From a virus: DNA of 64,000 nucleotides. Made by a program: the position numbers and the translations under genes. Shown piece after piece: positions 12,014 to 57,798 of this stretch. The notes beneath the pieces were generated by a model. It was not told where the DNA came from and did not search any database. It worked only from the letters and a program-made list of their open reading frames with translations. Position 1 is the first letter of the stretch; each line of letters opens with the position of its first letter. Where the stretch lies: positions 1 through 64,000 of the IMG/VR virus record IMGVR_UViG_3300031772_000002; one strand, given 5' to 3'.

Positions 12014-12604
12014 ATGAAATTTGTGCCACTAAGAAAAGCGATGGAATATTATGGTCAATGTGATAAAACAATCAGAAAATATGCGGAAAATGGAAACATT
12101 AAAGCAAAACGACTCCATTCTGGAAGATGGTTGTTTGACATCGACTCTTATGAAAAGCCATCCAAACAATCAACAATTTGCTACTGTCGTGTATCCTCAA
12201 TCAAGCAAAGAGACGATTTGGTCAGGCAGGTCGTCTTTATGCGAGAACAATTTCATAATGCAGAAATCATCCAGGATATTGGATCTGGACTTAACTACAA
12301 AAGAAAAGGGCTTAACTCCATTCTGGAACGACTTTTGCAAAGAGAAAAGCTTACAATTGTGGTTGCCTACAAAGACAGGCTTGCAAGGTTTGGAACAGAA
12401 CTTATCGAGTTCCTTATCAAGCAAAATGGTGGAGAACTCCTGGTTCTCAACCAATTGGTACATTCCCCCGAAAGAGAGCTTACCGAAGATCTACTCGCCG
12501 TTCTCACAGTATTTTCATGTCGAATGCATGGACTTAGAAGATATAAAAAGCAAGTCGAAGAAGATCCGGATTTACCCAAACCAGAATCAAAAGTCAATAT
12601 TTAA
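12014..12604 (+). CDS. tnpA: IS607 serine recombinase TnpA
   Basis: N-terminal HTH, YCRVSS catalytic motif, DIGSGLNYKR, DRLARFG, EDLLAVL. Confidence 0.93.
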   Translation: MKFVPLRKAMEYYGQCDKTIRKYAENGNIKAKRLHSGRWLFDIDSYEKPSKQSTICYCRVSSIKQRDDLVRQVVFMREQFHNAEIIQDIGSGLNYKRKGLNSILERLLQREKLTIVVAYKDRLARFGTELIEFLIKQNGGELLVLNQLVHSPERELTEDLLAVLTVFSCRMHGLRRYKKQVEEDPDLPKPESKVNI

Positions 12605-13646
12605 AAACTGGTTTGGGGCTGCAAGATTTTCTTTTAATCAAGCTTTTGCATATTTAAAAAACCCAGAGACTAAAGCAAATTGGATGTCTATTAAGGGCGA
12701 ACTGTTAGAAGCTCTCCCAGAATGGTCAAACAAAATTCCATATCAAATTAAATCAATAGCCATTAAAGATGCATGTACCTCAGTTTTGAATGCTAAAAAG
12801 AAATTTGCTATCACGCATGAATTTCAAGATGTGTCTTATAAGTCAAGGAAAGACACCAAACAATCATGCTATATTCCAAAGAGTGCAATTTCTGAATTGG
12901 GAATTTACCATTCAAAAATTGGTGAATTAAAATTTACAGAAAATATTCCTGACAATTGGTGTGACTCAAGGTTAACAAAAGAAAATGGTAGATATTATGT
13001 CTGTATACCACATAAGGTTCAATTACCCTCTATATGCGATAACCAAGCTAACAGGGTAGTTGCTCTCGATCCTGGTGTAAGAACATTTATAACTTTTTTT
13101 TCGGAAAATAGTTGTGGAAAGATTGGAGAAGGATGTTTTAAGAGAATTTTTAATTTATGCTTAAAGATTGATAAATTGCTATCGTCTTTAAGTAAAGAGA
13201 AACTATTCTTTAAAAGATGTAGAATTAAATCTTTAATAGGTAGAACAAAATGGAAGATTAAAGATTTAATTTCTGAACTCCATTTTAAGACAGCTAATTT
13301 TCTAGTCAAGAATTTTGATATTATTTTACTTCCAACTTTTGAAGTGTCAGATATGGTTGACAAATCAAAAAGAAAAATATCTTCGAGAACGGCTCGTAAT
13401 ATGCTGTCATTATCTCATTACAAATTTAAACAGATTATTAAATTTGTAGCTAATAATAATCATAAATTTGTTATTGACGTTAATGAAGCATATACATCAA
13501 AGACCGTGTCATGGACTGGTGAAATAATAGAAAACTTGAATGGAAATAGAGTTATAAAAAGTAACTTTGATGGACAAGTGATGGATCGAGATTATAATGG
13601 TGCTCGTGGAATATTTCTACGAGCACTACGGGGAGATACACCTTAA
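12051..13646 (+). CDS. tnpB: IS607 TnpB, Fanzor2-like (pro-Fanzor); alternative start 12528
   Basis: KIRIYP, ALDPGVRTF, LLPTFE, VNEAYTSKT, DRDYNGARGIF; zinc-finger cysteines absent. Confidence 0.88.
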   Translation: MVNVIKQSENMRKMETLKQNDSILEDGCLTSTLMKSHPNNQQFATVVYPQSSKETIWSGRSSLCENNFIMQKSSRILDLDLTTKEKGLTPFWNDFCKEKSLQLWLPTKTGLQGLEQNLSSSLSSKMVENSWFSTNWYIPPKESLPKIYSPFSQYFHVECMDLEDIKSKSKKIRIYPNQNQKSIFKNWFGAARFSFNQAFAYLKNPETKANWMSIKGELLEALPEWSNKIPYQIKSIAIKDACTSVLNAKKKFAITHEFQDVSYKSRKDTKQSCYIPKSAISELGIYHSKIGELKFTENIPDNWCDSRLTKENGRYYVCIPHKVQLPSICDNQANRVVALDPGVRTFITFFSENSCGKIGEGCFKRIFNLCLKIDKLLSSLSKEKLFFKRCRIKSLIGRTKWKIKDLISELHFKTANFLVKNFDIILLPTFEVSDMVDKSKRKISSRTARNMLSLSHYKFKQIIKFVANNNHKFVIDVNEAYTSKTVSWTGEIIENLNGNRVIKSNFDGQVMDRDYNGARGIFLRALRGDTP

Positions 13647-16137: not shown

Positions 16138-16329
16138 AGAATCTTTACTTTTACTAAGATTCTTTCTTCTGAATTCTTTTTTTATATTTTTAATTTCTTT
16201 TACTTCATTTGAAATGGTGTTGCTATTGTCAACAATAGCATCTGCCAAATCAAATATAGTATCGGTAATTTTTTTTACGTGTTTAATTATTTTTTTAGCA
16301 TTAGGAGTTTTGTAATCACTTTTATTCAT
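16114..16329 (-). CDS. Small basic hypothetical protein, last gene of RT operon
   Basis: 71 aa; start overlaps RNase H stop. Confidence 0.55.
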   Translation of the reverse strand: MNKSDYKTPNAKKIIKHVKKITDTIFDLADAIVDNSNTISNEVKEIKNIKKEFRRKNLSKSKDSKLGESPN

Positions 16330-16807
16330 GTGGACTTCTTTTAATGAAATCTTTTGCTATACGATCAACTTCTTGATTATTTTTATCATCCCCATGACCT
16401 TCAACCCATTTAAATTTAACAGTTTTAAATTCTAAAACTAATGAATATATTTTTTTCCACAATTTTTTATTTAATAAAGCTTTTCCATTGGATTTTCTCC
16501 AACCATTATTTGCCCATTCTATAATATAATCATTCCAATTTTCAGTTACATACTGAGAATCGCTATTAATAATGCAATCATGATCTTTTATTAATGATTG
16601 TGATGACCGTAAAAATTTTTTTAATCGTAATAAACTTCCTATTACTGCAATCAATTCCATTTGATTATTTGTTACATTGATACGGAATCCACCACCTTTC
16701 ATAATTTTTCTATAATTTAATATAATTATATATCCGTATCCTCCTTTGCATTCGCTATTTAATCTGTTTCCAGAACATGCTCCGTCTGTATATATTTCAA
16801 AAATCAT
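16322..16807 (-). CDS. rnhA: Ribonuclease HI
   Basis: YTDGACSGN, TNNQMEL, SDSQYV, WRKSNGK, WVEGH, NQEVDRIA; D-E-D-D intact. Confidence 0.95.
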   Translation of the reverse strand: MIFEIYTDGACSGNRLNSECKGGYGYIIILNYRKIMKGGGFRINVTNNQMELIAVIGSLLRLKKFLRSSQSLIKDHDCIINSDSQYVTENWNDYIIEWANNGWRKSNGKALLNKKLWKKIYSLVLEFKTVKFKWVEGHGDDKNNQEVDRIAKDFIKRSPHE

Positions 16808-17874
16808 TTGGCCCCCTTTGTCTTAAGGCCAAATTTTTCTTTTTCAAACTGTTTTAATTTTTCCATATATTTTTTACCTTGATAAGCATCAATAGACATT
16901 AAGTATGATGCCCATCCTTTTAATTTTCTTAACATTTTTTTAGTAGTTTGATCTGGATTTTTTTTTGTTGCATTATGAACTTTTGCTCTAAAAATTCTTA
17001 CATCGTATCTGGGGACTGATGTTTTTACATTAACTATTATTCCGCATGTTTTGAGTCTTCCAGATTTAGATTTAAATTTAGTTTTTTTCTTATTGGGTCG
17101 CAGTTTGTAAGCCCACAATTGTTGATATGCTAAATTTTTTACTTGTTTTTCAAGTTCGATTTTATTAATAGTTTTACTGGAAAAAGTTAAGTCATCAGCG
17201 TATCTGGTGTATACTATATTATTTTTTTCACAATGTTCAAGTAATTTTTTATCAAAACCTCTCATAATGAGGTTTGCAAGAATTGGTGATGTTGGAAATC
17301 CTTGAGCGCAAAATCCATTATAAGTACAGATATCAATTACTCGTGTCATTAATGATTGGTATCCTGTTTCGATACAATATTCAGGAATAAATACGGCTTT
17401 AATTTCTTCGCATTTAAATTCATAATCTTTTAATTTATTATGATACAATGACGGATTGCATCCATTTTCAAGCATTCTATCATAAAATTTACAAAACCTA
17501 CAAATTACTTTGTTTCCAAAAAGACAATTTTTTAAATGATCTTGAGATATTGAATCAAAAAAATTTTTTATATCTATCTTTCCTAAAGACATTGCTCCTA
17601 CGTGCAATCTTGCGTTTGTTACAATGCCCCTCTTATTAACAAATCCATGAGCTGCATCGCTTGGTTTATATTTTTTTAGAAATTTCCAATAAATACTTTT
17701 TTGTATATATTTTAATTTATTATCAGGAGCAATTATATTTCTTAACGATCCGTCACTTTTAGGTATATTCATTCTTCTTATATGTTTATCTTTATTTGCA
17801 ATGATTTCATCAATTTCATCTATTGATGAATTCATAAAGTATTGAATGTCGAAATTACTATTATCCTTGAACAT
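16804..17874 (-). CDS. Retron-type reverse transcriptase with Cys-rich insertion
   Basis: IPKSDG..R.I.AP, AAHGF, NARLH (retron NAxxH), DIKNFFDSI, AQGFPTSPILAN, YTRYADDLTFS, TCGIIVN (VTG-like region Y). Confidence 0.93.
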   Translation of the reverse strand: MFKDNSNFDIQYFMNSSIDEIDEIIANKDKHIRRMNIPKSDGSLRNIIAPDNKLKYIQKSIYWKFLKKYKPSDAAHGFVNKRGIVTNARLHVGAMSLGKIDIKNFFDSISQDHLKNCLFGNKVICRFCKFYDRMLENGCNPSLYHNKLKDYEFKCEEIKAVFIPEYCIETGYQSLMTRVIDICTYNGFCAQGFPTSPILANLIMRGFDKKLLEHCEKNNIVYTRYADDLTFSSKTINKIELEKQVKNLAYQQLWAYKLRPNKKKTKFKSKSGRLKTCGIIVNVKTSVPRYDVRIFRAKVHNATKKNPDQTTKKMLRKLKGWASYLMSIDAYQGKKYMEKLKQFEKEKFGLKTKGAK

Positions 17875-19042
17875 CTCCAGTCTCCTTTTTATCTATTTTT
17901 TTAACAGCTTGTTCGCGTGCGTCATCAATAGTGATTTCTTTATTTTCAGATGATGCTTGTTTAACTATTTCATTAGCTTTTTTTTCAACTGAATCTTCTT
18001 TGTCAACTGCATATTTTTCCATACTAATATCTTCTCCTTCATTTATATAAGTTGTTATTTGATTTAAAAATTTATCTAAATCACCAATTTTCAATATTGC
18101 TCCTCCAACTTTTTTATGCCCACCTCCTGATATAGGATATGAAAGATCTGAAAGAAATTTACCAATATTAAGATCGTATCTAAATTCAACCCATGGATTA
18201 GCTCCTATTTCACAATGAATAGATTCTTCTCCATGATTTATAATTCTAATAGAATAAGGAAGGTCTTGATTGACAAAAAATTCAGAATATCTAGGATATT
18301 CATATAATGAATTACAGTATATTATTCCTATATTAATATTTTTAACTATATTTTTTTCAATTTTTAAAGCTCTTTTTTTTAAATTTAAAACTTCTGAATT
18401 ATCTATATTCATCGAAAATAATAGATCATCAATATCAAAATCATATTTAACTATATTTTCAACTATACGACAATATGTATTATCAATATATAATTTCATA
18501 TTTTCAAGGTATGCTCTTAAAATCATTAATGGATGTAAACTATTGAAAACAGAATTTACATTAGTATAATTTGCAGAATCAATCATATCTATAATATTAA
18601 TATCATCAATAAAATTGTTGATTACATCTAATTTATTTGATTGATTTTTTATTATATAATTATATAAAACTCGTGTTGCGGATTTTTCACCTATTGAGTA
18701 TATAATATGTTTTTTATTATATATTTCTATTAATTCATTAGTTGTTTTATCGGTGAACTCTTTGTTTTGATGATGATCAATCCATATATTACATAAATCG
18801 TTGTATTGGTAATCAATGATTATAATATTTGGATTTATATTTTTTAAACAGATTTCTTTAATAAATGAATTAAATTTAATTCCTCTCATTGATGTTTTGA
18901 CAGGGCATAATTTGATTGGAAAATTTTTAGTGTCATTTTCAATAAAAGATTTAATAAATATGGCTGATGTGTATATGCCATCCATATCATCATGAAAAAA
19001 AATATAGTGTTTCTTTTTATTACAATAATTTTCTAATCCCAC
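17861..19042 (-). CDS. DHH/DHHA1-family phosphoesterase
   Basis: FHDDMDG, IIIIDY, WIDHH, MIDSA, GGGH; likely GTG start 19042 after GGAGG (ORF track start 19054). Confidence 0.88.
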   Translation of the reverse strand: MGLENYCNKKKHYIFFHDDMDGIYTSAIFIKSFIENDTKNFPIKLCPVKTSMRGIKFNSFIKEICLKNINPNIIIIDYQYNDLCNIWIDHHQNKEFTDKTTNELIEIYNKKHIIYSIGEKSATRVLYNYIIKNQSNKLDVINNFIDDINIIDMIDSANYTNVNSVFNSLHPLMILRAYLENMKLYIDNTYCRIVENIVKYDFDIDDLLFSMNIDNSEVLNLKKRALKIEKNIVKNINIGIIYCNSLYEYPRYSEFFVNQDLPYSIRIINHGEESIHCEIGANPWVEFRYDLNIGKFLSDLSYPISGGGHKKVGGAILKIGDLDKFLNQITTYINEGEDISMEKYAVDKEDSVEKKANEIVKQASSENKEITIDDAREQAVKKIDKKETGDVQG

Positions 19043-19069
19043 ATGTTCCTCCATTTGTTAGTAATAAAT

Positions 19070-51815: not shown

Positions 51816-51819
51816 ACTT

Positions 51820-52089
51820 TTATCCTTTGATATATGATTTTGATTTTAGTGAATCTATTTTATTACAATTAAGATCATGAATAATGATATCAATTATAAA
51901 ATTTTTATCCATTTGATTTTTTTCTGCCAAATCAATAAAAGTATTCAGATCATAAAATGCTTTTATTCCTTTATATTCTTGGAAATACATCATAGATAAA
52001 ATAATGTCTATGGTATTAATTTCTGTACATTTTGTATATTCTAATATTTTTTTTTCTATAGTAAGAATATCATCATATCCGGGTTTCAT
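51820..52089 (-). CDS. Hypothetical protein
   Basis: ORF with AAGGA RBS. Confidence 0.55.
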   Translation of the reverse strand: MKPGYDDILTIEKKILEYTKCTEINTIDIILSMMYFQEYKGIKAFYDLNTFIDLAEKNQMDKNFIIDIIIHDLNCNKIDSLKSKSYIKG

Positions 52090-52546
52090 TTTTTTTCCTT
52101 ATATTAAATAAATTTTTTCATTACCAACTGAAATTTCGTACAACGGTTCGCTAAATGGCTGATAGTTGCCGCATTCGCTCAACCAAATCTTTAACATTCG
52201 CTATATCACAATCCTTAATATGAATATCAGAAAGTTCGTTTGCAAAAGCGTCAATTTCATTCTTTAGCTGCTGTGCGCTGTTGGCAATTTCTACAACACG
52301 TTTCAGAGCTTGCCATGCGTCCTTTAATTTTACACCATAGTTCAATTGCGGAAATTCAGATTCTATGATTGATAGTGCCTCTTTACCAGAAAGCATGGTA
52401 AACTCCTTTCAAAAAATTTAAGAGCAAAATTGAAGTTAATTTAGCAAATGTATACAGTCGGAACAGCATTGCATACTTTTTGAGTTTCATTTTTTTTCCT
52501 TATATTAAATAAATTTTTTCGTTACCAACTGAAATTTCGTACAACG
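52083..52546. repeat. About 63-bp direct repeat of a cassette leader (52083-52145 and 52484-52546)
   Basis: GTTTCAT-T-run-CCTTATATTAAATAAATTTTTTC[A/G]TTACCAACTGAAATTTCGTACAACG. Confidence 0.9.
52151..52396 (-). CDS. Cassette-like small hypothetical protein
   Basis: AGGAG RBS; 3' end lies inside palindrome. Confidence 0.55.
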   Translation of the reverse strand: MLSGKEALSIIESEFPQLNYGVKLKDAWQALKRVVEIANSAQQLKNEIDAFANELSDIHIKDCDIANVKDLVERMRQLSAI

Positions 52547-52595
52547 TTCCACAAACGGGCGAAGTTCTCGCCTATAATTCTAACTCCATAGTCAA

Positions 52596-52796
52596 CTACG
52601 GGTATTTTGTCATTTGTGTGTTATCAGCTGCAAACTGGATTACCGTATCTTCCAACATGGCCTGAAACGAAGTTACGATAGTTTCAAGTTCGTTGGTTTC
52701 AAGATTATTTACATAAGAAGAAGTCATTCCATTAAGTCGTAAAACTCGTTTCATGCGAACACGCCAGCGAGCTTCATCCGAAGAATATTTAGTCAT
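52596..52796 (-). CDS. Cassette-like small hypothetical protein
   Basis: Start moved to MTKY after AGGA; ends in palindrome. Confidence 0.5.
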   Translation of the reverse strand: MTKYSSDEARWRVRMKRVLRLNGMTSSYVNNLETNELETIVTSFQAMLEDTVIQFAADNTQMTKYP

Positions 52797-52872
52797 AAAA
52801 CTTCCTTTCTTGGCATCGCCTATAAACAAAAAATGCAGTTTATTGACACTAATTTAGCAAACGTATATAGTG

Positions 52873-53085
52873 CTACTTTCCTAACTGTACACAATTTCCA
52901 TTTAAACACTGATTTTTTGATCCAAGTGCATAACCGCATTCGGAACAGCATTGCATACTTTTCTGGTTATATGATACAGAATGGGCGCCATATTTAGAGT
53001 ACTGTTGCGTAAATATCAAATAACCGCACCATACTCCAAAACCAAATATTGGAATTAATAACAGAAATAATATAATGAATATCAT
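52873..53085 (-). CDS. Cassette-like small membrane protein with Zn ribbon
   Basis: GGAGG RBS, TM helix, CSEC..C..C. Confidence 0.55.
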   Translation of the reverse strand: MIFIILFLLLIPIFGFGVWCGYLIFTQQYSKYGAHSVSYNQKSMQCCSECGYALGSKNQCLNGNCVQLGK

Positions 53086-53429
53086 ATGCAGCCTCCAAAG
53101 TTTTACATAATAAAAAAAAGAATGAATAAAAATTCATTCTTATAGGAAGCTATTGAATAAGACATGAGCTTCCGTTTTTTTTTAAAAACCAAAACGACAA
53201 TTTTCCCCCTAGAAAATTAAAATCCTTTGAAGAAAAATACTTTTTATTTATGGGGTTTATCTTCCCATAAATTAAAAAGGCTTTTTTAATTAACTTATTT
53301 TTTTTTTTATTAAAAATTATTGATTTTAACATAAAAAAATCCTTTTAATTGTTAATACTTAATTGTATTAACATAATATTTATACCATAATTTTCATAAT
53401 AATAACGTATATAATTGTTTCTATTTATT

Positions 53430-53792
53430 TTATAAATTTGATTTTGATTTTATATCCACAATCGTTGGTTCCATATTAGGTAACGGTTTCAGTTTAGGAA
53501 CTATTTTATTTTCATCAACTGTTACAATAGGAATGCCACTTTTTGGTTCAGACCATTTGCCTATTTTAAGTAACTCATTTTTCCAAACAGCTGAAACTTC
53601 GTCAGAGCAATGAGCAACCGCATCAGCCCATGTAACACCACGTCCATATGTTGATTGAAACCATATCTGATATGGTAATGATTGTGCATTATGTGGTTGT
53701 GTGGAATTGTGTAAAGTTGCACATACTTGGCAGGTCCCTGCTTTCGATGGTAACATAAACATTGGCATAAAGTTCCAATTCCTTTCTTTCAA
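53430..53792 (-). CDS. Hypothetical protein (CxxC/His)
   Basis: CQVC..H..H, TWADAVAHC. Confidence 0.55.
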   Translation of the reverse strand: MKERNWNFMPMFMLPSKAGTCQVCATLHNSTQPHNAQSLPYQIWFQSTYGRGVTWADAVAHCSDEVSAVWKNELLKIGKWSEPKSGIPIVTVDENKIVPKLKPLPNMEPTIVDIKSKSNL

Positions 53793-53844
53793 AATATTAA
53801 AATTTTGTTTAAACTATTTGTGAAATTCTTGATATATATGATAC

Positions 53845-54078
53845 TTAACAACCATCTTTGTCATCTTTGTAACCATACAAAGACCACATTCCCATACACA
53901 TAACTCCTTTTTTAAGTTTATCGCATATAAATGTAGATCCAACGACAGGATCAATAACAATTCTTGAAGATTTAATAATTTTGTTAATTTGTAACGTATA
54001 GACATATAACTCGGCGGTACTGTTATCCTCTAATACGGTTACGTCCAAAATACAACCGTCTTCGTGATATTCAGCCAC
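53845..54078 (-). CDS. Hypothetical protein
   Basis: GTG start after AAGGA. Confidence 0.5.
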   Translation of the reverse strand: MAEYHEDGCILDVTVLEDNSTAELYVYTLQINKIIKSSRIVIDPVVGSTFICDKLKKGVMCMGMWSLYGYKDDKDGC

Positions 54079-54181
54079 AAATTATTCCTTTCTTGTGAAG
54101 GTCTATCAAATTAGAATCTTATATAATAACTCCATAAAAAAAATTTATTTCTCCAAGCGTTTGCCAAATGGATGCCGTTGC

Positions 54182-54379
54182 TCACCGAAGCGGGATACGG
54201 CAATCAGGACAATTTTTCATCCACGGATACTCTATTGACAAATCCTGATGGTTCTTCGAGCAATGGCATTCCTTTGGCTGTTGCTGGCTGTGCTGCGCTG
54301 ACTCCTTAGTGTCGTGCGCGGCAGTATCTTCGATGATGCGTCTCAATATTTTTTTACACTGATCTTTCGTAACAAGCAT
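54182..54379 (-). CDS. Cassette-like small Zn-ribbon protein
   Basis: GAGG RBS; CHC..CPDC encoded within palindrome. Confidence 0.5.
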   Translation of the reverse strand: MLVTKDQCKKILRRIIEDTAAHDTKESAQHSQQQPKECHCSKNHQDLSIEYPWMKNCPDCRIPLR

Positions 54380-54436
54380 ACATCCTCATTTTCTTGCCAC
54401 GCCTATAAATGGTTCGGCGTAGCATTGACAGCAACT

Positions 54437-54856
54437 TTATAAATGGTGCTGTTGTAGACAAGTAATAGCTGCTTTGATATGATTAACTGCGTTATCTACT
54501 TGTAAACAGCGCAAATAAGCCAATGCATCGTTTAGGTCTGCAATGGCATCCATTTGTGTTTGGTTGGTGGGTTTAAATTTTTCTTCCACTAGTAATTCCA
54601 ACAATCTCTTTTGTCCAGGAGTTACATTTATTTTATTATCTATTGCCCATCTACTAATAATTTCATATATTTTAATATGTAATTGTTGTAAGATAGATTG
54701 ACAATTTCCATCGAGACTGCGTTGAGTCTCGATGTCATACCGATATCCACACTCATCACACAATTCCCACATATCATTCCATAAATGATCTATCTCTTTT
54801 TGACAATTTCTGCATTTCATAATAAATTTCCAATCTTTTTTTTGGAACGAAACCAA
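54437..54856 (-). CDS. Cassette-like hypothetical protein
   Basis: CRNC..CDEC; ends in palindrome. Confidence 0.5.
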   Translation of the reverse strand: MVSFQKKDWKFIMKCRNCQKEIDHLWNDMWELCDECGYRYDIETQRSLDGNCQSILQQLHIKIYEIISRWAIDNKINVTPGQKRLLELLVEEKFKPTNQTQMDAIADLNDALAYLRCLQVDNAVNHIKAAITCLQQHHL

Positions 54857-55278
54857 GGTATTTTTTTATCTTGTGGATTGTCAGATGAGGAACTACCAGT
54901 TATAATTTTCGGATGTTTGCGATATACCTTATAACCAAGACTATTACATTTTGATACAGACAAACCTATCAAATTTACAACTGCGTCAACACCAAATTCT
55001 TTCGATACAACTATATCTCCACTAATGCATTTTCCTTTCTTAACAAGTTTCATTTCTTTTCTCAATCTCAAATCGAACCTCCTATAAAATTTATTTTTAC
55101 CGTTCGTTTTTTCTTCTACGCCACACCTTGCGTATTCTATTTTTATTAATTTAATCACACCAGAAAAAACTTCATCGTTACATTCATTTTCTACAAATGC
55201 AACTATTTCTTTTTTTGATTTACCTTTTAGTAACGTTTCTTTGTCTGTGTCAAATTCAAATGTAATCCATAATTTCAT
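54817..55278 (-). CDS. Hypothetical protein
   Basis: ORF, start moved to MKLW. Confidence 0.5.
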   Translation of the reverse strand: MKLWITFEFDTDKETLLKGKSKKEIVAFVENECNDEVFSGVIKLIKIEYARCGVEEKTNGKNKFYRRFDLRLRKEMKLVKKGKCISGDIVVSKEFGVDAVVNLIGLSVSKCNSLGYKVYRKHPKIITGSSSSDNPQDKKIPWFRSKKKIGNLL

Positions 55279-55356
55279 ATTTTCTTTTCCAGCACGGATG
55301 ATGTTTATTAGAATAAAGAAGGCTCCCACACAACGTTTGACAAATGTATGCCGAGC

Positions 55357-55572
55357 CTACCCGTAAACCTCAGAATGCGACTTACCGCAACGAATACACG
55401 AACCGCTATTAAGATCGAACTGGTGCTGACATGGTATACTTTGTTTGTTGGTGGATATAAATTTTTCCACCTCAGCTTTCAGTTTTCCGTACTTCGCTAC
55501 GACATCGGCGTGTACGGATTCTGGTAACTCCAACGCAAGGCATCTAACTACCTTATCAAATTCGGCAAACAT
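55357..55572 (-). CDS. Cassette-like small protein
   Basis: GGAGG RBS before MFAEF; ends TNKQSIPCQH..CIRC. Confidence 0.55.
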   Translation of the reverse strand: MFAEFDKVVRCLALELPESVHADVVAKYGKLKAEVEKFISTNKQSIPCQHQFDLNSGSCIRCGKSHSEVYG

Positions 55573-55625
55573 ATAACCTCCAGAGAAAACGGTTTTTCGC
55601 ACAACGTTTGACAAATACACGCTGT

Positions 55626-55817
55626 TTAGTCACGATGATTAGACATACAATCGACACAATAATGATACTCTGCTATTTCATCACAATCGTCGCACTTAAT
55701 AGATGGCGTACTTTGTTTGCTTAAGATGTAATTCCACGCTTCTAATGCAACGCCACGACCGTAACTTTGATTTTTGCCATACTTATCGTTAAACCACTGC
55801 TCGAAATTTTCTGCCAT
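55626..55817 (-). CDS. Cassette-like small Zn-finger protein
   Basis: CDDC..CVDC. Confidence 0.5.
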   Translation of the reverse strand: MAENFEQWFNDKYGKNQSYGRGVALEAWNYILSKQSTPSIKCDDCDEIAEYHYCVDCMSNHRD

Positions 55818-55847
55818 ATATACAACCTTTCTATATAGTTCCTTAAT

Positions 55848-56108
55848 TTATTTTTTTTTGTTTGTATTAAAGAATTTTATTTTCTCTTCTTTCTTCTCCC
55901 ACACTTTACAATTTCTATAAATACCTGAATTGTCAGAATATCTTATTATTTTTCGTTTTTTGATAATGATATAATCTGTTACACACGCAGGTAAAGATAT
56001 TAATTTAGGCAAAGGAAATTTACACTCTCCATTACATCTCGAATGTTCACCTATTGAAAAAGGAGTCCAATCCGGTTCGTATTTGCACGTTAAACATATT
56101 TTATACAT
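55848..56108 (-). CDS. Cys-rich hypothetical protein
   Basis: CLTC..C..C. Confidence 0.5.
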   Translation of the reverse strand: MYKICLTCKYEPDWTPFSIGEHSRCNGECKFPLPKLISLPACVTDYIIIKKRKIIRYSDNSGIYRNCKVWEKKEEKIKFFNTNKKK

Positions 56109-56121
56109 TTTGATATCCTAT

Positions 56122-56478
56122 TTAAATTTTAATAATGTTATTTACTAAAATTTTTTTTAAAAATTTATTAATTATATCTTGATTTACTTTTTCATATTTA
56201 AAGAGATCATATAAATTAGTAGATTCACTGTTTGCAGTTGTTCTTAACTTTATTCCTTCTTTTCCTTTTATCCAATATCTACAGAAATATCCTGAATATG
56301 ATTTTGAAGTTATAAAGCCATATTCAATATACGAATCTTCTATTATATTAAATTCATCTATTGCATGGCCAGGAACATATGCAATTTGATATCCTGTTTC
56401 AATTTTTGAAAGTTGCTCTTGACTTAAACTACTTAATTTTTGCATTTGCATAACATTCATAAAAACTCCAATTTTCAT
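56122..56478 (-). CDS. Hypothetical protein
   Basis: ORF. Confidence 0.5.
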   Translation of the reverse strand: MKIGVFMNVMQMQKLSSLSQEQLSKIETGYQIAYVPGHAIDEFNIIEDSYIEYGFITSKSYSGYFCRYWIKGKEGIKLRTTANSESTNLYDLFKYEKVNQDIINKFLKKILVNNIIKI

Positions 56479-56647
56479 CCGTTCATTATAATTTAAAAAG
56501 CATAATAATTTTGTACAATGTGTGATAAATGTACTGTCGTTTTAATTTAATATCTCTTACTTTCCAATAATTTTGAATTCCAAAAAATACCTTAGTGTAA
56601 TCCGCATTGCATAACGCCGGTGTTGTGCGCTGATTTTCGCGCTTTCC

Positions 56648-56905
56648 TTAGTGTACTCCCGGCGCTCTTTCTGTTTCATCCTCCATGAAATCAAACTGAC
56701 CCATTGCTACCTTTGCCCGTTTGTACGCATCGAAACATCCGCCATAAATTCCATCTTCTTCCGCACCCCATGATTCGATACCACGGAGTAGTCCGCTTAT
56801 AATTTCCATTAATTCCGTGACCGGCATATATGCCTCGCATTTCCGATGATGCGATAACAACGGCAATCGTCCATCGCTCGCCCAATTTTTGCATTCGCAT
56901 TCCAT
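56648..56905 (-). CDS. Hypothetical protein
   Basis: ORF, higher GC. Confidence 0.5.
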   Translation of the reverse strand: MECECKNWASDGRLPLLSHHRKCEAYMPVTELMEIISGLLRGIESWGAEEDGIYGGCFDAYKRAKVAMGQFDFMEDETERAPGVH

Positions 56906-56988
56906 GTTTTTTCTCTTTCTTGCGCCGGGCTATAATAGTTCTTCAGCGCGAAAATTTGCGTACAACGTATAACAAATGTACGCCGTGT

Positions 56989-57195
56989 CTACCGCTTAGG
57001 AAAACAAGTCCACGCACGAGTATAAATTGTGTCATGAATGTAAACAGTATCTGGACACGAACATGGCGTACTTTTTTTGTTGTAAGATGTGTTTTTAATT
57101 ACCTTAATGTCAGAGGCAATATCACGGATGTTTATTATCGCAGTGATACTTCCAATAAGCAAAAAGATAAATAACAAAACCGAACCTGCTCTCAT
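56989..57195 (-). CDS. Cassette-like small membrane/secreted protein
   Basis: N-terminal hydrophobic helix; ends in the clearest attC-like palindrome. Confidence 0.5.
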   Translation of the reverse strand: MRAGSVLLFIFLLIGSITAIINIRDIASDIKVIKNTSYNKKSTPCSCPDTVYIHDTIYTRAWTCFPKR

Positions 57196-57210
57196 ATTGC
57201 CGCCTATAAA

Positions 57211-57414
57211 TTAAAGATTTAAAACATTACTTTCTGCGGGCGCACTCTTTCTTATTGCTAAATATTCCATTAAACACCGTCTGATTGTTAACGAATATAC
57301 TGCCAACGATGGTAGTTTTATCAAATCATTTTTCATAAAATTTGTTATTGCACCAATTGATTCCTGTATATCTTCAATGGTGGTAATTTCACCAGATTTG
57401 TCTATTATATTCAT
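57211..57414 (-). CDS. Hypothetical protein
   Basis: AGGA RBS. Confidence 0.5.
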   Translation of the reverse strand: MNIIDKSGEITTIEDIQESIGAITNFMKNDLIKLPSLAVYSLTIRRCLMEYLAIRKSAPAESNVLNL

Positions 57415-57468
57415 TTTCCTTTCCTTTCTTATGTCCGCTTATAAATAAGTTTTGCGAGTGCAAATGGT

Positions 57469-57798
57469 TTACAACGGTTTATAAACGTCTGATAGTTCGC
57501 GCAGTTCGTTGACGGCATTATCTACCGCCATAGGATCAGCGGTACGATACGAAATTTCAAGTCCATCTGCAATAGCGCGAATTTTGGCTTGCAGTTGTTG
57601 TACGTCTGTAAGCTTTTTTACATTAGCGTACCGTTCGCACTCTTCATTAAGAGCACGAGTGTTAGGCTCATCTTCTCTATAAGGACAATTTTTGTCTTCA
57701 CCGTCACAGTCGTCTCTATCAATAGCACATACTGTTTTTGATTTACTTTTTACTTCTACAATTTTAACTAAAATAGTCTCTATTTTTTTGCAAGTCAT
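57469..57798 (-). CDS. Cassette-like hypothetical protein
   Basis: AAGGA RBS; ends in palindrome. Confidence 0.5.
   Translation of the reverse strand: MTCKKIETILVKIVEVKSKSKTVCAIDRDDCDGEDKNCPYREDEPNTRALNEECERYANVKKLTDVQQLQAKIRAIADGLEISYRTADPMAVDNAVNELRELSDVYKPL

Follow-up and report, generated by a model that had tools for sequence, protein, structure and literature searches.

A probable integron-like array of mobile gene cassettes in the complete genome of a phage

Genetic organisation of the island

The IMG/VR record IMGVR_UViG_3300031772_000002 is a sediment phage genome of 164,446 bp that was rated complete (direct terminal repeats, CheckV 100%). Its first 64 kb, the whole stretch of DNA that was analysed and which we refer to as the window, contains an island between 52.1 kb and 57.8 kb in which small genes are punctuated by repeated sites that resemble the attC sites of integrons. 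This island, which is probably a mobile gene-cassette array, is the subject of the present analysis. The genome has a GC content of ~27% and its gene set includes a large terminase, a helicase, a prohead protease and a reverse transcriptase. The nearest relatives of the terminase were just 25-27% identical to it, no cultured phage was close to the genome, and the island DNA had no match among known phages.

The GC content of the island is 0.31-0.36, compared to 0.22-0.25 in both flanks. It encodes 16 small open reading frames (ORFs), every one on the minus strand, which we have designated g1 (52151-52396), g2 (52596-52796), g3 (52873-53085), g4 (53430-53768), g5 (53845-54078), g6 (54182-54379), g7 (54437-54820), g8 (54817-55278), g9 (55357-55572), g10 (55626-55817), g11 (55848-56108), g12 (56122-56478), g13 (56648-56905), g14 (56989-57195), g15 (57211-57414) and g16 (57469-57798). 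None of the 16 proteins could be assigned to a PHROGs or Pfam family. Rfam gave no match at gathering thresholds, and a single microRNA match in the island (E about 1) was ascribed to chance. Proteins ~50% identical to g4 exist in other phages. The composition of g8, g11 and g12 is AT-rich, like that of the phage backbone, and the GC-richest genes of the island (0.44-0.47) are those of the cassettes found below to be polymorphic.

A 96 bp direct repeat is present in two copies that are 83% identical. Copy A (52064-52159) includes a site core, an AT-rich leader and the opening codons of the gene that comes next; the high identity to copy B (52465-52560) begins at the core. A leader motif had been reported to recur in the original prediction, an earlier reading of the window made from its letters alone. 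This was confirmed, as TTATAGGCG was found four times in the genome, always on the minus strand and always in the island (57201-57209, 52569-52577, 52817-52825 and 54400-54408), where it sits 5-24 nt ahead of a start codon or within one of the sites (S2, below).

Repeated sites within the island

The island ORFs were found to be punctuated by approximately 11 sites with a CAACG...TGTTG core, all of them on the plus strand and in a single orientation. The core is located just past the stop codon of an ORF and a partly complementary right arm follows 60-130 nt further on, within the ORF. The original prediction had described about nine attC-like palindromes here; their single orientation and the location of the right arms in the 3'-ends of ORFs were upheld, but only about five of the sites folded convincingly, the others being decayed. 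The sequence ACAACG[GT]T occurs eight times on the plus strand of the 164-kb genome, five of them within the 5.5-kb island, and a sixth island ACAACG is present at 56962. Because the right arm falls inside the ORF, g3, g7, g9, g10 and g14 share a short peptide. The imprinted peptides TNKQSIPC, SKQSTPS, YNKKSTPC and YNQKSMQC, which had been noticed previously, were all verified in the ORFs, and g7 adds TNQTQM to them; the AAC of the core is always read as Asn, except in g10, in which the core has decayed.

The sites were folded as single-stranded DNA and compared with dinucleotide shuffles (z). The strongest hairpin of the island was S4 (54153-54283; variant core CCAAGCG) at the 3'-end of g6, with a z of -3.75 and 0 of 200 shuffles as good. 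S5 (54428-54572; core AGCAAC at 54430-54435), at the 3'-end of g7, was overlooked in the earlier reading and folded end to end with a z of -2.0. End-to-end folds were also obtained for S10 (56961-57084; core at 56962-56967) at the 3'-end of g14 and for S11 (57470-57602) at the 3'-end of g16, the first site in gene order (both z -1.2), and as the minimum-energy fold of S6 (55329-55452; z -0.3) at the 3'-end of g9. The 16-nt left arm of S6 is identical to that of S7 (55600-55722), at the 3'-end of g10, the right arm of which is decayed (z +1.3). S1 (52139-52285; core ACAACG at 52140-52145) lies behind g1, marks the island's low-coordinate edge and has decayed as a hairpin (z +1.9), and S3 (52842-52972; variant core GCAAACG), at the 3'-end of g3, is weak (z +0.9). 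S2 (52539-52600; core at 52541-52546) is a small GC hairpin that contains one TTATAGGCG and has no attached ORF; it may be an empty or decayed cassette. Two further sites had also been overlooked: a decayed one with CGTTTTAAT, the canonical tip of the wider family described below (56510-56546), and a minimal, box-only one behind g13 (56607-56628) consisting of AACG, 4 nt and TGTT. The folds of S1, S3, S7 and a stretch at 52437-52486 were not above those of the shuffles (z +0.7 to +1.9), and these are decayed or half sites. The repeat family is real and about half of its island copies are worn.

With three generic hairpin detectors that used 4-nt cores, the island did not stand out from shuffled AT-rich sequence or from background, and an alignment of eight mixed sites with MAFFT and RNAalifold recovered nothing beyond the 5-bp box. 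The sites are therefore significant because of their extended core, their one orientation, their position at ORF ends and their membership of a family outside this phage, and not through generic hairpin detection.

Variation in cassette content among wild relatives

The island stretch was present in at least ten other sediment metagenomes. The relatives comprised contigs from JGI, ENA and Logan assemblies and six loci (L318-L323) that were retrieved via the exact g14 protein; the upstream flanking gene retrieved no relatives when used as the query. Alignment revealed the flanks of the relatives to be 97-100% identical and their gene content to differ by whole cassettes, with most variant junctions at the CAACG core or a few bases off it. 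Cassette content is therefore not fixed, and the comparison of gene order that had been proposed earlier brought out gain, loss and swap alike.

The S10 core at 56962 is a natural hotspot, as three alternative cassettes follow it among the relatives. In the window it is followed by the g13 cassette, in L320-L323 by an 86-aa gene and in L318 and L319 by a 105-aa Lar-type restriction-alleviation gene (PF14354; L318:6268-6585 and L319:6268-6585). The Lar cassette of L318 is 365 nt in length and ends in its own core, after which the sequence continues with that which follows the first core in L320; the Lar insertion is thus flanked by the 5-nt core alone. The g13 cassette block of the window (56594-56961, minus strand, GC 0.47) corresponds to 778 or 1139 other bases in relatives, and in L319 the g13 cassette starts with the same bases behind another, well-folded site (z -4.1).

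Two other cassettes were polymorphic. The g9 cassette (55346-55600, minus strand, GC 0.44), a 271-nt unit, is absent from L318 and L320-L322, and the junction of this indel (55330/55601) lies in the 16 nt common to both flanking sites. In place of the g6 cassette (54157-54434, minus strand, GC 0.46), L318 has a different 276-nt cassette; one end of this swap is at the core (54156/54157) and the other at ~54434/54435. Assembly chimeras are unlikely to account for such variants because the 5-16-nt repeats are too short and the same forms recur in independent assemblies.

Weak contig joints (52495-57884, 51304-56155, 54283-57579 and 56988-57061), the sides of which were 20-23 nt in T-runs or arms, were not counted. 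The idea that the sites delimit swappable C-terminal tails was discarded, as all core junctions seen were at the box, past the stop codon, and the tail hence travels with its own gene.

A family of related sites in other phages

A 16-mer from the left arm was used as a probe and, although 17 of its 20 matches were due to chance, it identified three unrelated phage contigs, L017, L020 (45% GC) and L028 (28% GC). Sites on these contigs have a common layout of core, 3-nt spacer, 6-bp stem, small bulge, second stem, 10-130-nt tip, return arm, T and GTT, and the arms of window sites are identical to theirs over 16-17 nt. The arrays that hold such arms also contain members with the canonical tip, and their ORFs are unrelated to those of the window. 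Some of the sites on the three contigs are short ones that have TCGTTTTAATG as their tip. A pattern scan for this tip revealed at least 151 elements on at least 120 IMG/VR stretches, mostly of 45-47 nt with a mode of 46 nt among the matches listed.

An alignment of 84 distinct copies showed the AAC, the G next to it, the tip and the T-GTT to be invariant or almost so, the AAC/GTT box being present in 84/84. Changes on both sides were seen in 11 of the 12 inner-stem pairs, and paired cells made up 87% compared to 36-47% when the partners were slid. Many members have classic boxes of the CTAAC/GTTAG type. In the window, the sites at 54153, 54428, 55329, 56961 and 57470 fold with the geometry of the family (AAC-G, spacer, stems, variable tip and T-GTT).

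A covariance model, R1, was built from the 84-copy alignment and leans on the canonical tip. It detected the short sites of L017 and L020 as well as six in P12002L, a cultured Polaribacter phage (29248-32285 and 37305-38940), in which three DNA methyltransferase genes and a Mom-like gene are bracketed by them. One of the six, P12002L_attC1, scored 57.5 bits with R1; it was predicted as an attC by HattCI and was the only one of six phage sites tested that failed with IntI1 (PMC9892861). Neither the recombinase described below nor any other tyrosine recombinase was found in P12002L, and this cultured lytic phage could serve as a laboratory model.

At several of the recombinase loci described in the next section (L180, L158, L202 and others), many R1 matches were 95-98 nt in length, which suggests a second length class of sites with a conserved, larger tip.

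Association with an Xer-like tyrosine recombinase

An Xer-like tyrosine recombinase directly adjoins the array of L028, and a conserved 266-aa relative with all catalytic residues is encoded at six hairpin loci. In a reverse test, 80 loci were retrieved via the 266-aa protein and scanned with R1. All 114 significant matches were upstream of the recombinase and on the same strand, and no match was present in 437 kb downstream of the recombinases. The recombinases at related arrays are 265-298 aa in length and scored below all curated cut-offs (XerA, XerC, XerD and IntI). The integron-integrase model matched them in two pieces only, the first covering profile positions 1-180 of 315, and this pattern of profile matches, as distinct from a direct alignment, suggests that the part specific to IntI in the middle is missing. 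Relatives of the recombinase at 40-51% identity are common in Bacteroidota genomes, and a few of these loci carry sites as well; the L028 recombinase retrieved only itself as a single-protein query.

No tyrosine recombinase was identified in the complete phage genome, either by PF00589 or by tblastn, and because the family recombinase is absent from it the array of the window is an orphan. No published description of a phage hairpin-cassette system with an Xer-like recombinase was found in the literature.

A row of five 77-nt R1 matches was observed on the chromosome of Desulfitobacterium sp. Sab5 (L273, 8419-12160), downstream of a recombinase with 42% identity and on the opposite strand. This may be an array of the same kind in a bacterial chromosome.

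Box signature and strand preference

In integron arrays, crossover inside the box makes each site a hybrid (PMC5027507). Among the phage sites, the outer four or five box positions within one site are usually non-complementary, with a 5/5 match in 2%. The box on the GTT side matched the AAC-side box of the next site 5/5 in 6 of 25 neighbouring pairs, compared to 1.8% of random pairs, and in L028 matches of 7-9 nt were seen by eye at most junctions. Such a match across the gene is the classical mark of an integron array, although in the window itself it is not decisive.

On the AACG strand, G:T mispairs outnumbered A:C mispairs in arrays with genes on that strand (47:23) and also where the genes run opposite, both in other phages (39:24) and in the window (20:10). 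The bias goes with the strand of the site in both gene orientations and, though modest, speaks for selection of the fold on one DNA strand and not in the mRNA.

Interpretation of the island as a cassette array

We put the probability that the island is a mobile, integron-like gene-cassette array at roughly 0.75; on this interpretation it is an orphan, partly decayed member of a phage integron-like cassette system. The site family, its covariation, the junctions at or near the core in relatives and the tie between arrays and recombinase in other phages were all observed directly. The island had previously been suspected of being a shuffling or capture array served by a recombinase from elsewhere, and the present results agree: near-identical relatives differ by whole cassettes, mostly at or near the CAACG core; the hairpins belong to a covarying family whose outer box halves are complementary across the intervening gene; and 80 other phage loci tie that family to an Xer-like tyrosine recombinase, which the complete genome lacks. 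The system is integron-like in four respects, namely sites defined by shape, exchange at AAC/GTT, cassettes of one gene and hybrid boxes. It is not a canonical integron, from which it departs in three: an IntI-type integrase is lacking, the spacer differs and the bulges sit on the opposite arm.

In gene orientation, a cassette would begin just past the GTTG core and comprise a short leader, one small ORF and an imperfect inverted repeat of its own, the far end of which would be the next core. On the plus strand, a well-preserved site would read AAC box, G, 3-nt spacer, 6-bp stem, small bulge, second stem, a tip, variable and 10-130 nt long, in which the ORF may have its last codons, return arm, T and GTT box. 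A tyrosine recombinase would recognise the folded site by its shape, and strand exchange at the AAC/GTT box would allow whole cassettes to be excised, inserted or replaced. The substrate is likely to be a single strand and not a cruciform, with the cut presumably separating the A from the C. Since the complete genome encodes no tyrosine recombinase, the enzyme would have to act on this phage in trans, coming from a co-infecting phage or from the host, and the decay of many sites is what would be expected of an array without its own recombinase.

Several results weigh against this interpretation. The complete genome has no tyrosine recombinase and no enzyme was identified for the lineage. Most of the window sites are thermodynamically unremarkable, and R1, built on members with the canonical tip, detected no island site; the custom covariance model that had been proposed as a check covers the outside family and did not reach the long-tipped sites of the island. 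The strand bias of the mispairs is modest. In most outside arrays (135/148) the genes are on the AACG strand of the site, while those of the window, L017, L020 and L028 are on the opposite strand. Among the junctions, that of the g9 indel is inside a repeat of 16 nt and slippage could explain it, and on the g7 side the g6 swap reaches the core only to within 2-3 nt, L318 having two extra bases at this point. A deletion of 1273 bp (51816-53088) runs between two start codons and not between cores, the 56593 end of the g13 block falls inside an 81-aa ORF, and g8 and g11 have changes within the gene, away from cores. From these non-core junctions it follows that ordinary recombination also shapes the island.

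Alternative explanations

Of the alternatives, the one that survives best, and which we nonetheless regard as unlikely, is that the sites are regulatory linkers similar to the promoter-early stem-loops (PeSLs), combining terminators or mRNA-stabilising stem-loops with promoters or ribosome sites. Shuffling would then be a by-product of homologous or microhomology recombination between linkers, with no dedicated recombinase, as in the hyperplastic regions of T4-like phages. The PeSLs of those phages consist of sigma-70 promoters and short GC stem-loop terminators and act through homologous recombination (PMC2839356, PMC4122927). They resemble the island sites in being intergenic elements that recur beside ORFans where the early region of a large lytic phage is plastic, and in lying at the ends of indels that separate close relatives (PMC2839356, PMC4122927); like the sites described here, they mark ORFan-rich regions, and they give mini-circles (PMC2839356). 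The want of a tyrosine recombinase in this phage fits such linkers, as do the g9 indel within a direct repeat, the junctions at start codons or ribosome sites off the cores, and leaders following the core that are common to unrelated phages (TTTTCTCTGGAG-type and TTATAGG-type). However, the promoter and terminator signature is missing from the island: no U-tract or intrinsic terminators were found on the gene strand, and sigma-70-like sites were not in excess (37, compared to 32 +/- 5 in shuffles). The phage sites are hairpins of 46-170 nt whose arms vary in sequence with pairing kept, the outer box halves pair across genes, and the mispair bias goes with the strand of the site, not with that of the mRNA. 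The Lar insertion and the three alternatives at 56962 have no more than the 5-nt core in common, too little for exchange by homology, and there is a dedicated recombinase family, the tie to which is strict in position and strand.

Less probable again is the explanation that ordinary chromosomal attC sites of the host were picked up and recombined by a host IntI, the island then being no more than a cluster of attC sites without an integron integrase (CALIN). CALINs have been published for virulent phages (PMC9892861), and one-gene cassettes in a single orientation are common to the phage arrays and to integrons and CALINs (PMC5027507, PMC9892861). The sites are imperfect hairpins in which only AAC/GTT is conserved, the arms vary but pair, and the terminal structure ranges from a few to >100 nt. 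In the window, the strand that reads AAC first is antisense to the ORFs of the cassettes, as is the recombinogenic bottom strand of attC. Exchange takes place at the AAC/GTT box, as indicated by the cross-cassette box signature and by the junctions at 56962, 55330/55601, 54156/7 and ~54434/5 (within 2-3 nt), and the outer half of the box belongs to the neighbouring cassette. Arrays of the CALIN kind can also lack an integrase, and HattCI predicted one member of the family as attC.

Against this, an attC has a 5-6-nt unpaired central spacer on each arm and extrahelical bases on the L'' arm that are spaced by a 6-bp stem (PMC5027507). The spacer of the phage sites is asymmetric (AAC side 3-4 nt, GTT side 0-1 nt), their 6-bp stem is followed by a 1-3-nt bulge on the AAC-side arm, that is, on the other arm, and the short form has the conserved tip TCGTTTTAATG. 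The R boxes agree with RYYYAAC/GTTRRRY, from which the ACAAC/GTTGT of the window is off at one position; the deviation from the canonical attC that had been noted before is thus small in the box and extends to spacer and bulges. No IntI integrase is encoded by the genome, and the recombinase tied to the family (266 aa) scores under all of the curated cut-offs, its match to the IntI model being in two pieces. In other phages this short, Xer-like enzyme is encoded downstream of, and co-directionally with, the array. Each phage cassette has its own leader and ribosome site, most outside arrays have their genes inverted relative to the site when compared with integrons, and, among six phage sites, P12002L_attC1, the sole member of the family tested, was alone in not being recombined by IntI1.

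Least credible is the insertion of selfish palindromic elements, similar to miniature inverted-repeat transposable elements (MITEs) or to the Rickettsia palindromic elements (RPEs) of Ogata et al. 2000, which reportedly behave in this manner, at or into the 3'-ends of immobile genes: the palindromic architecture and the similar peptides stamped on unrelated ORFs in one reading frame through AAC fit it, but the variants differ by units of gene plus site and not by the palindrome alone, no orthologues in the relatives were seen to differ only by a clean palindrome insertion, the interiors of the elements are unrelated in sequence, and the family is tied to a recombinase and to arrays.

Wider occurrence and significance

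A further mechanistic parallel to the cassette array as interpreted here concerns phage CTX. There an Xer-type tyrosine recombinase acts on a hairpin of single-stranded phage DNA, a host enzyme can serve a phage that encodes none, and the whole phage genome is integrated at dif. The array described here differs in having many tandem sites that delimit single-gene cassettes. Recombination of the folded, single-stranded attP of CTX by XerCD is cited in PMC5027507.

The balance tips slightly towards a broader proposal, according to which there is a widespread second kind of integron, made up of a short Xer-like tyrosine recombinase and folded sites recognised by shape. It would move single-gene cassettes (Lar, DNA methyltransferases, Mom and many ORFans) among lytic phages of Bacteroidota-type hosts and would also load, in trans, phages without the enzyme, such as the present one. 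As at least one cassette in the relatives is anti-restriction (Lar), the array probably stores accessory and counter-defence genes.

How lytic phages come by their many small accessory and counter-defence genes, and how they swap them, is for the most part unexplained; illegitimate or homologous recombination is what is usually invoked. Here the site is defined, there is a candidate enzyme family and nature provides before-and-after alleles, which makes the question directly testable. The cassettes found so far include anti-restriction functions, and in the arms race over defence the system probably quickens the pace on the side of the phage. Sites of this type may be classed as attC by integron search tools, although IntI1 failed with the one member on which it was tried, and misfiling would affect how 'integron components in phages' are read.

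Other mobile elements and variation in the window

An earlier suggestion connected the reverse transcriptase (16.8-17.9 kb) with the array; nothing was found that links the two. The reverse transcriptase operon is encoded at 16322-19054 and gave PHROG polymerase and reverse transcriptase matches. A serine recombinase (12014-12604) was considered as the enzyme of the array and rejected, as it looks like an IS607-type transposase beside a possible TnpB. It has a Resolvase domain (59.8 bits) and overlaps an ORF of 531 aa, and together they (12014-13646) look like an IS607-type TnpA/TnpB pair.

In runs X3 and X4, 1450 other bases were present between 51318 and 51347 of the window, an intergenic position outside the island. 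A 410-aa TnpB element (L318:10198-11430) is inserted in L318 near the equivalent of window position 53385, beside a 126-nt copy of window 56074-56199. At the start of the window, a TnpB gene (357-1451; Cas12f-like TNB domain and OrfB_IS605) is followed ~100 nt downstream by a lone minimal site (1550-1580), in which a perfect 8-bp AAC/GTT box closes directly on the tip CGTTTTAAT; its E value with R1 was only 1.6.

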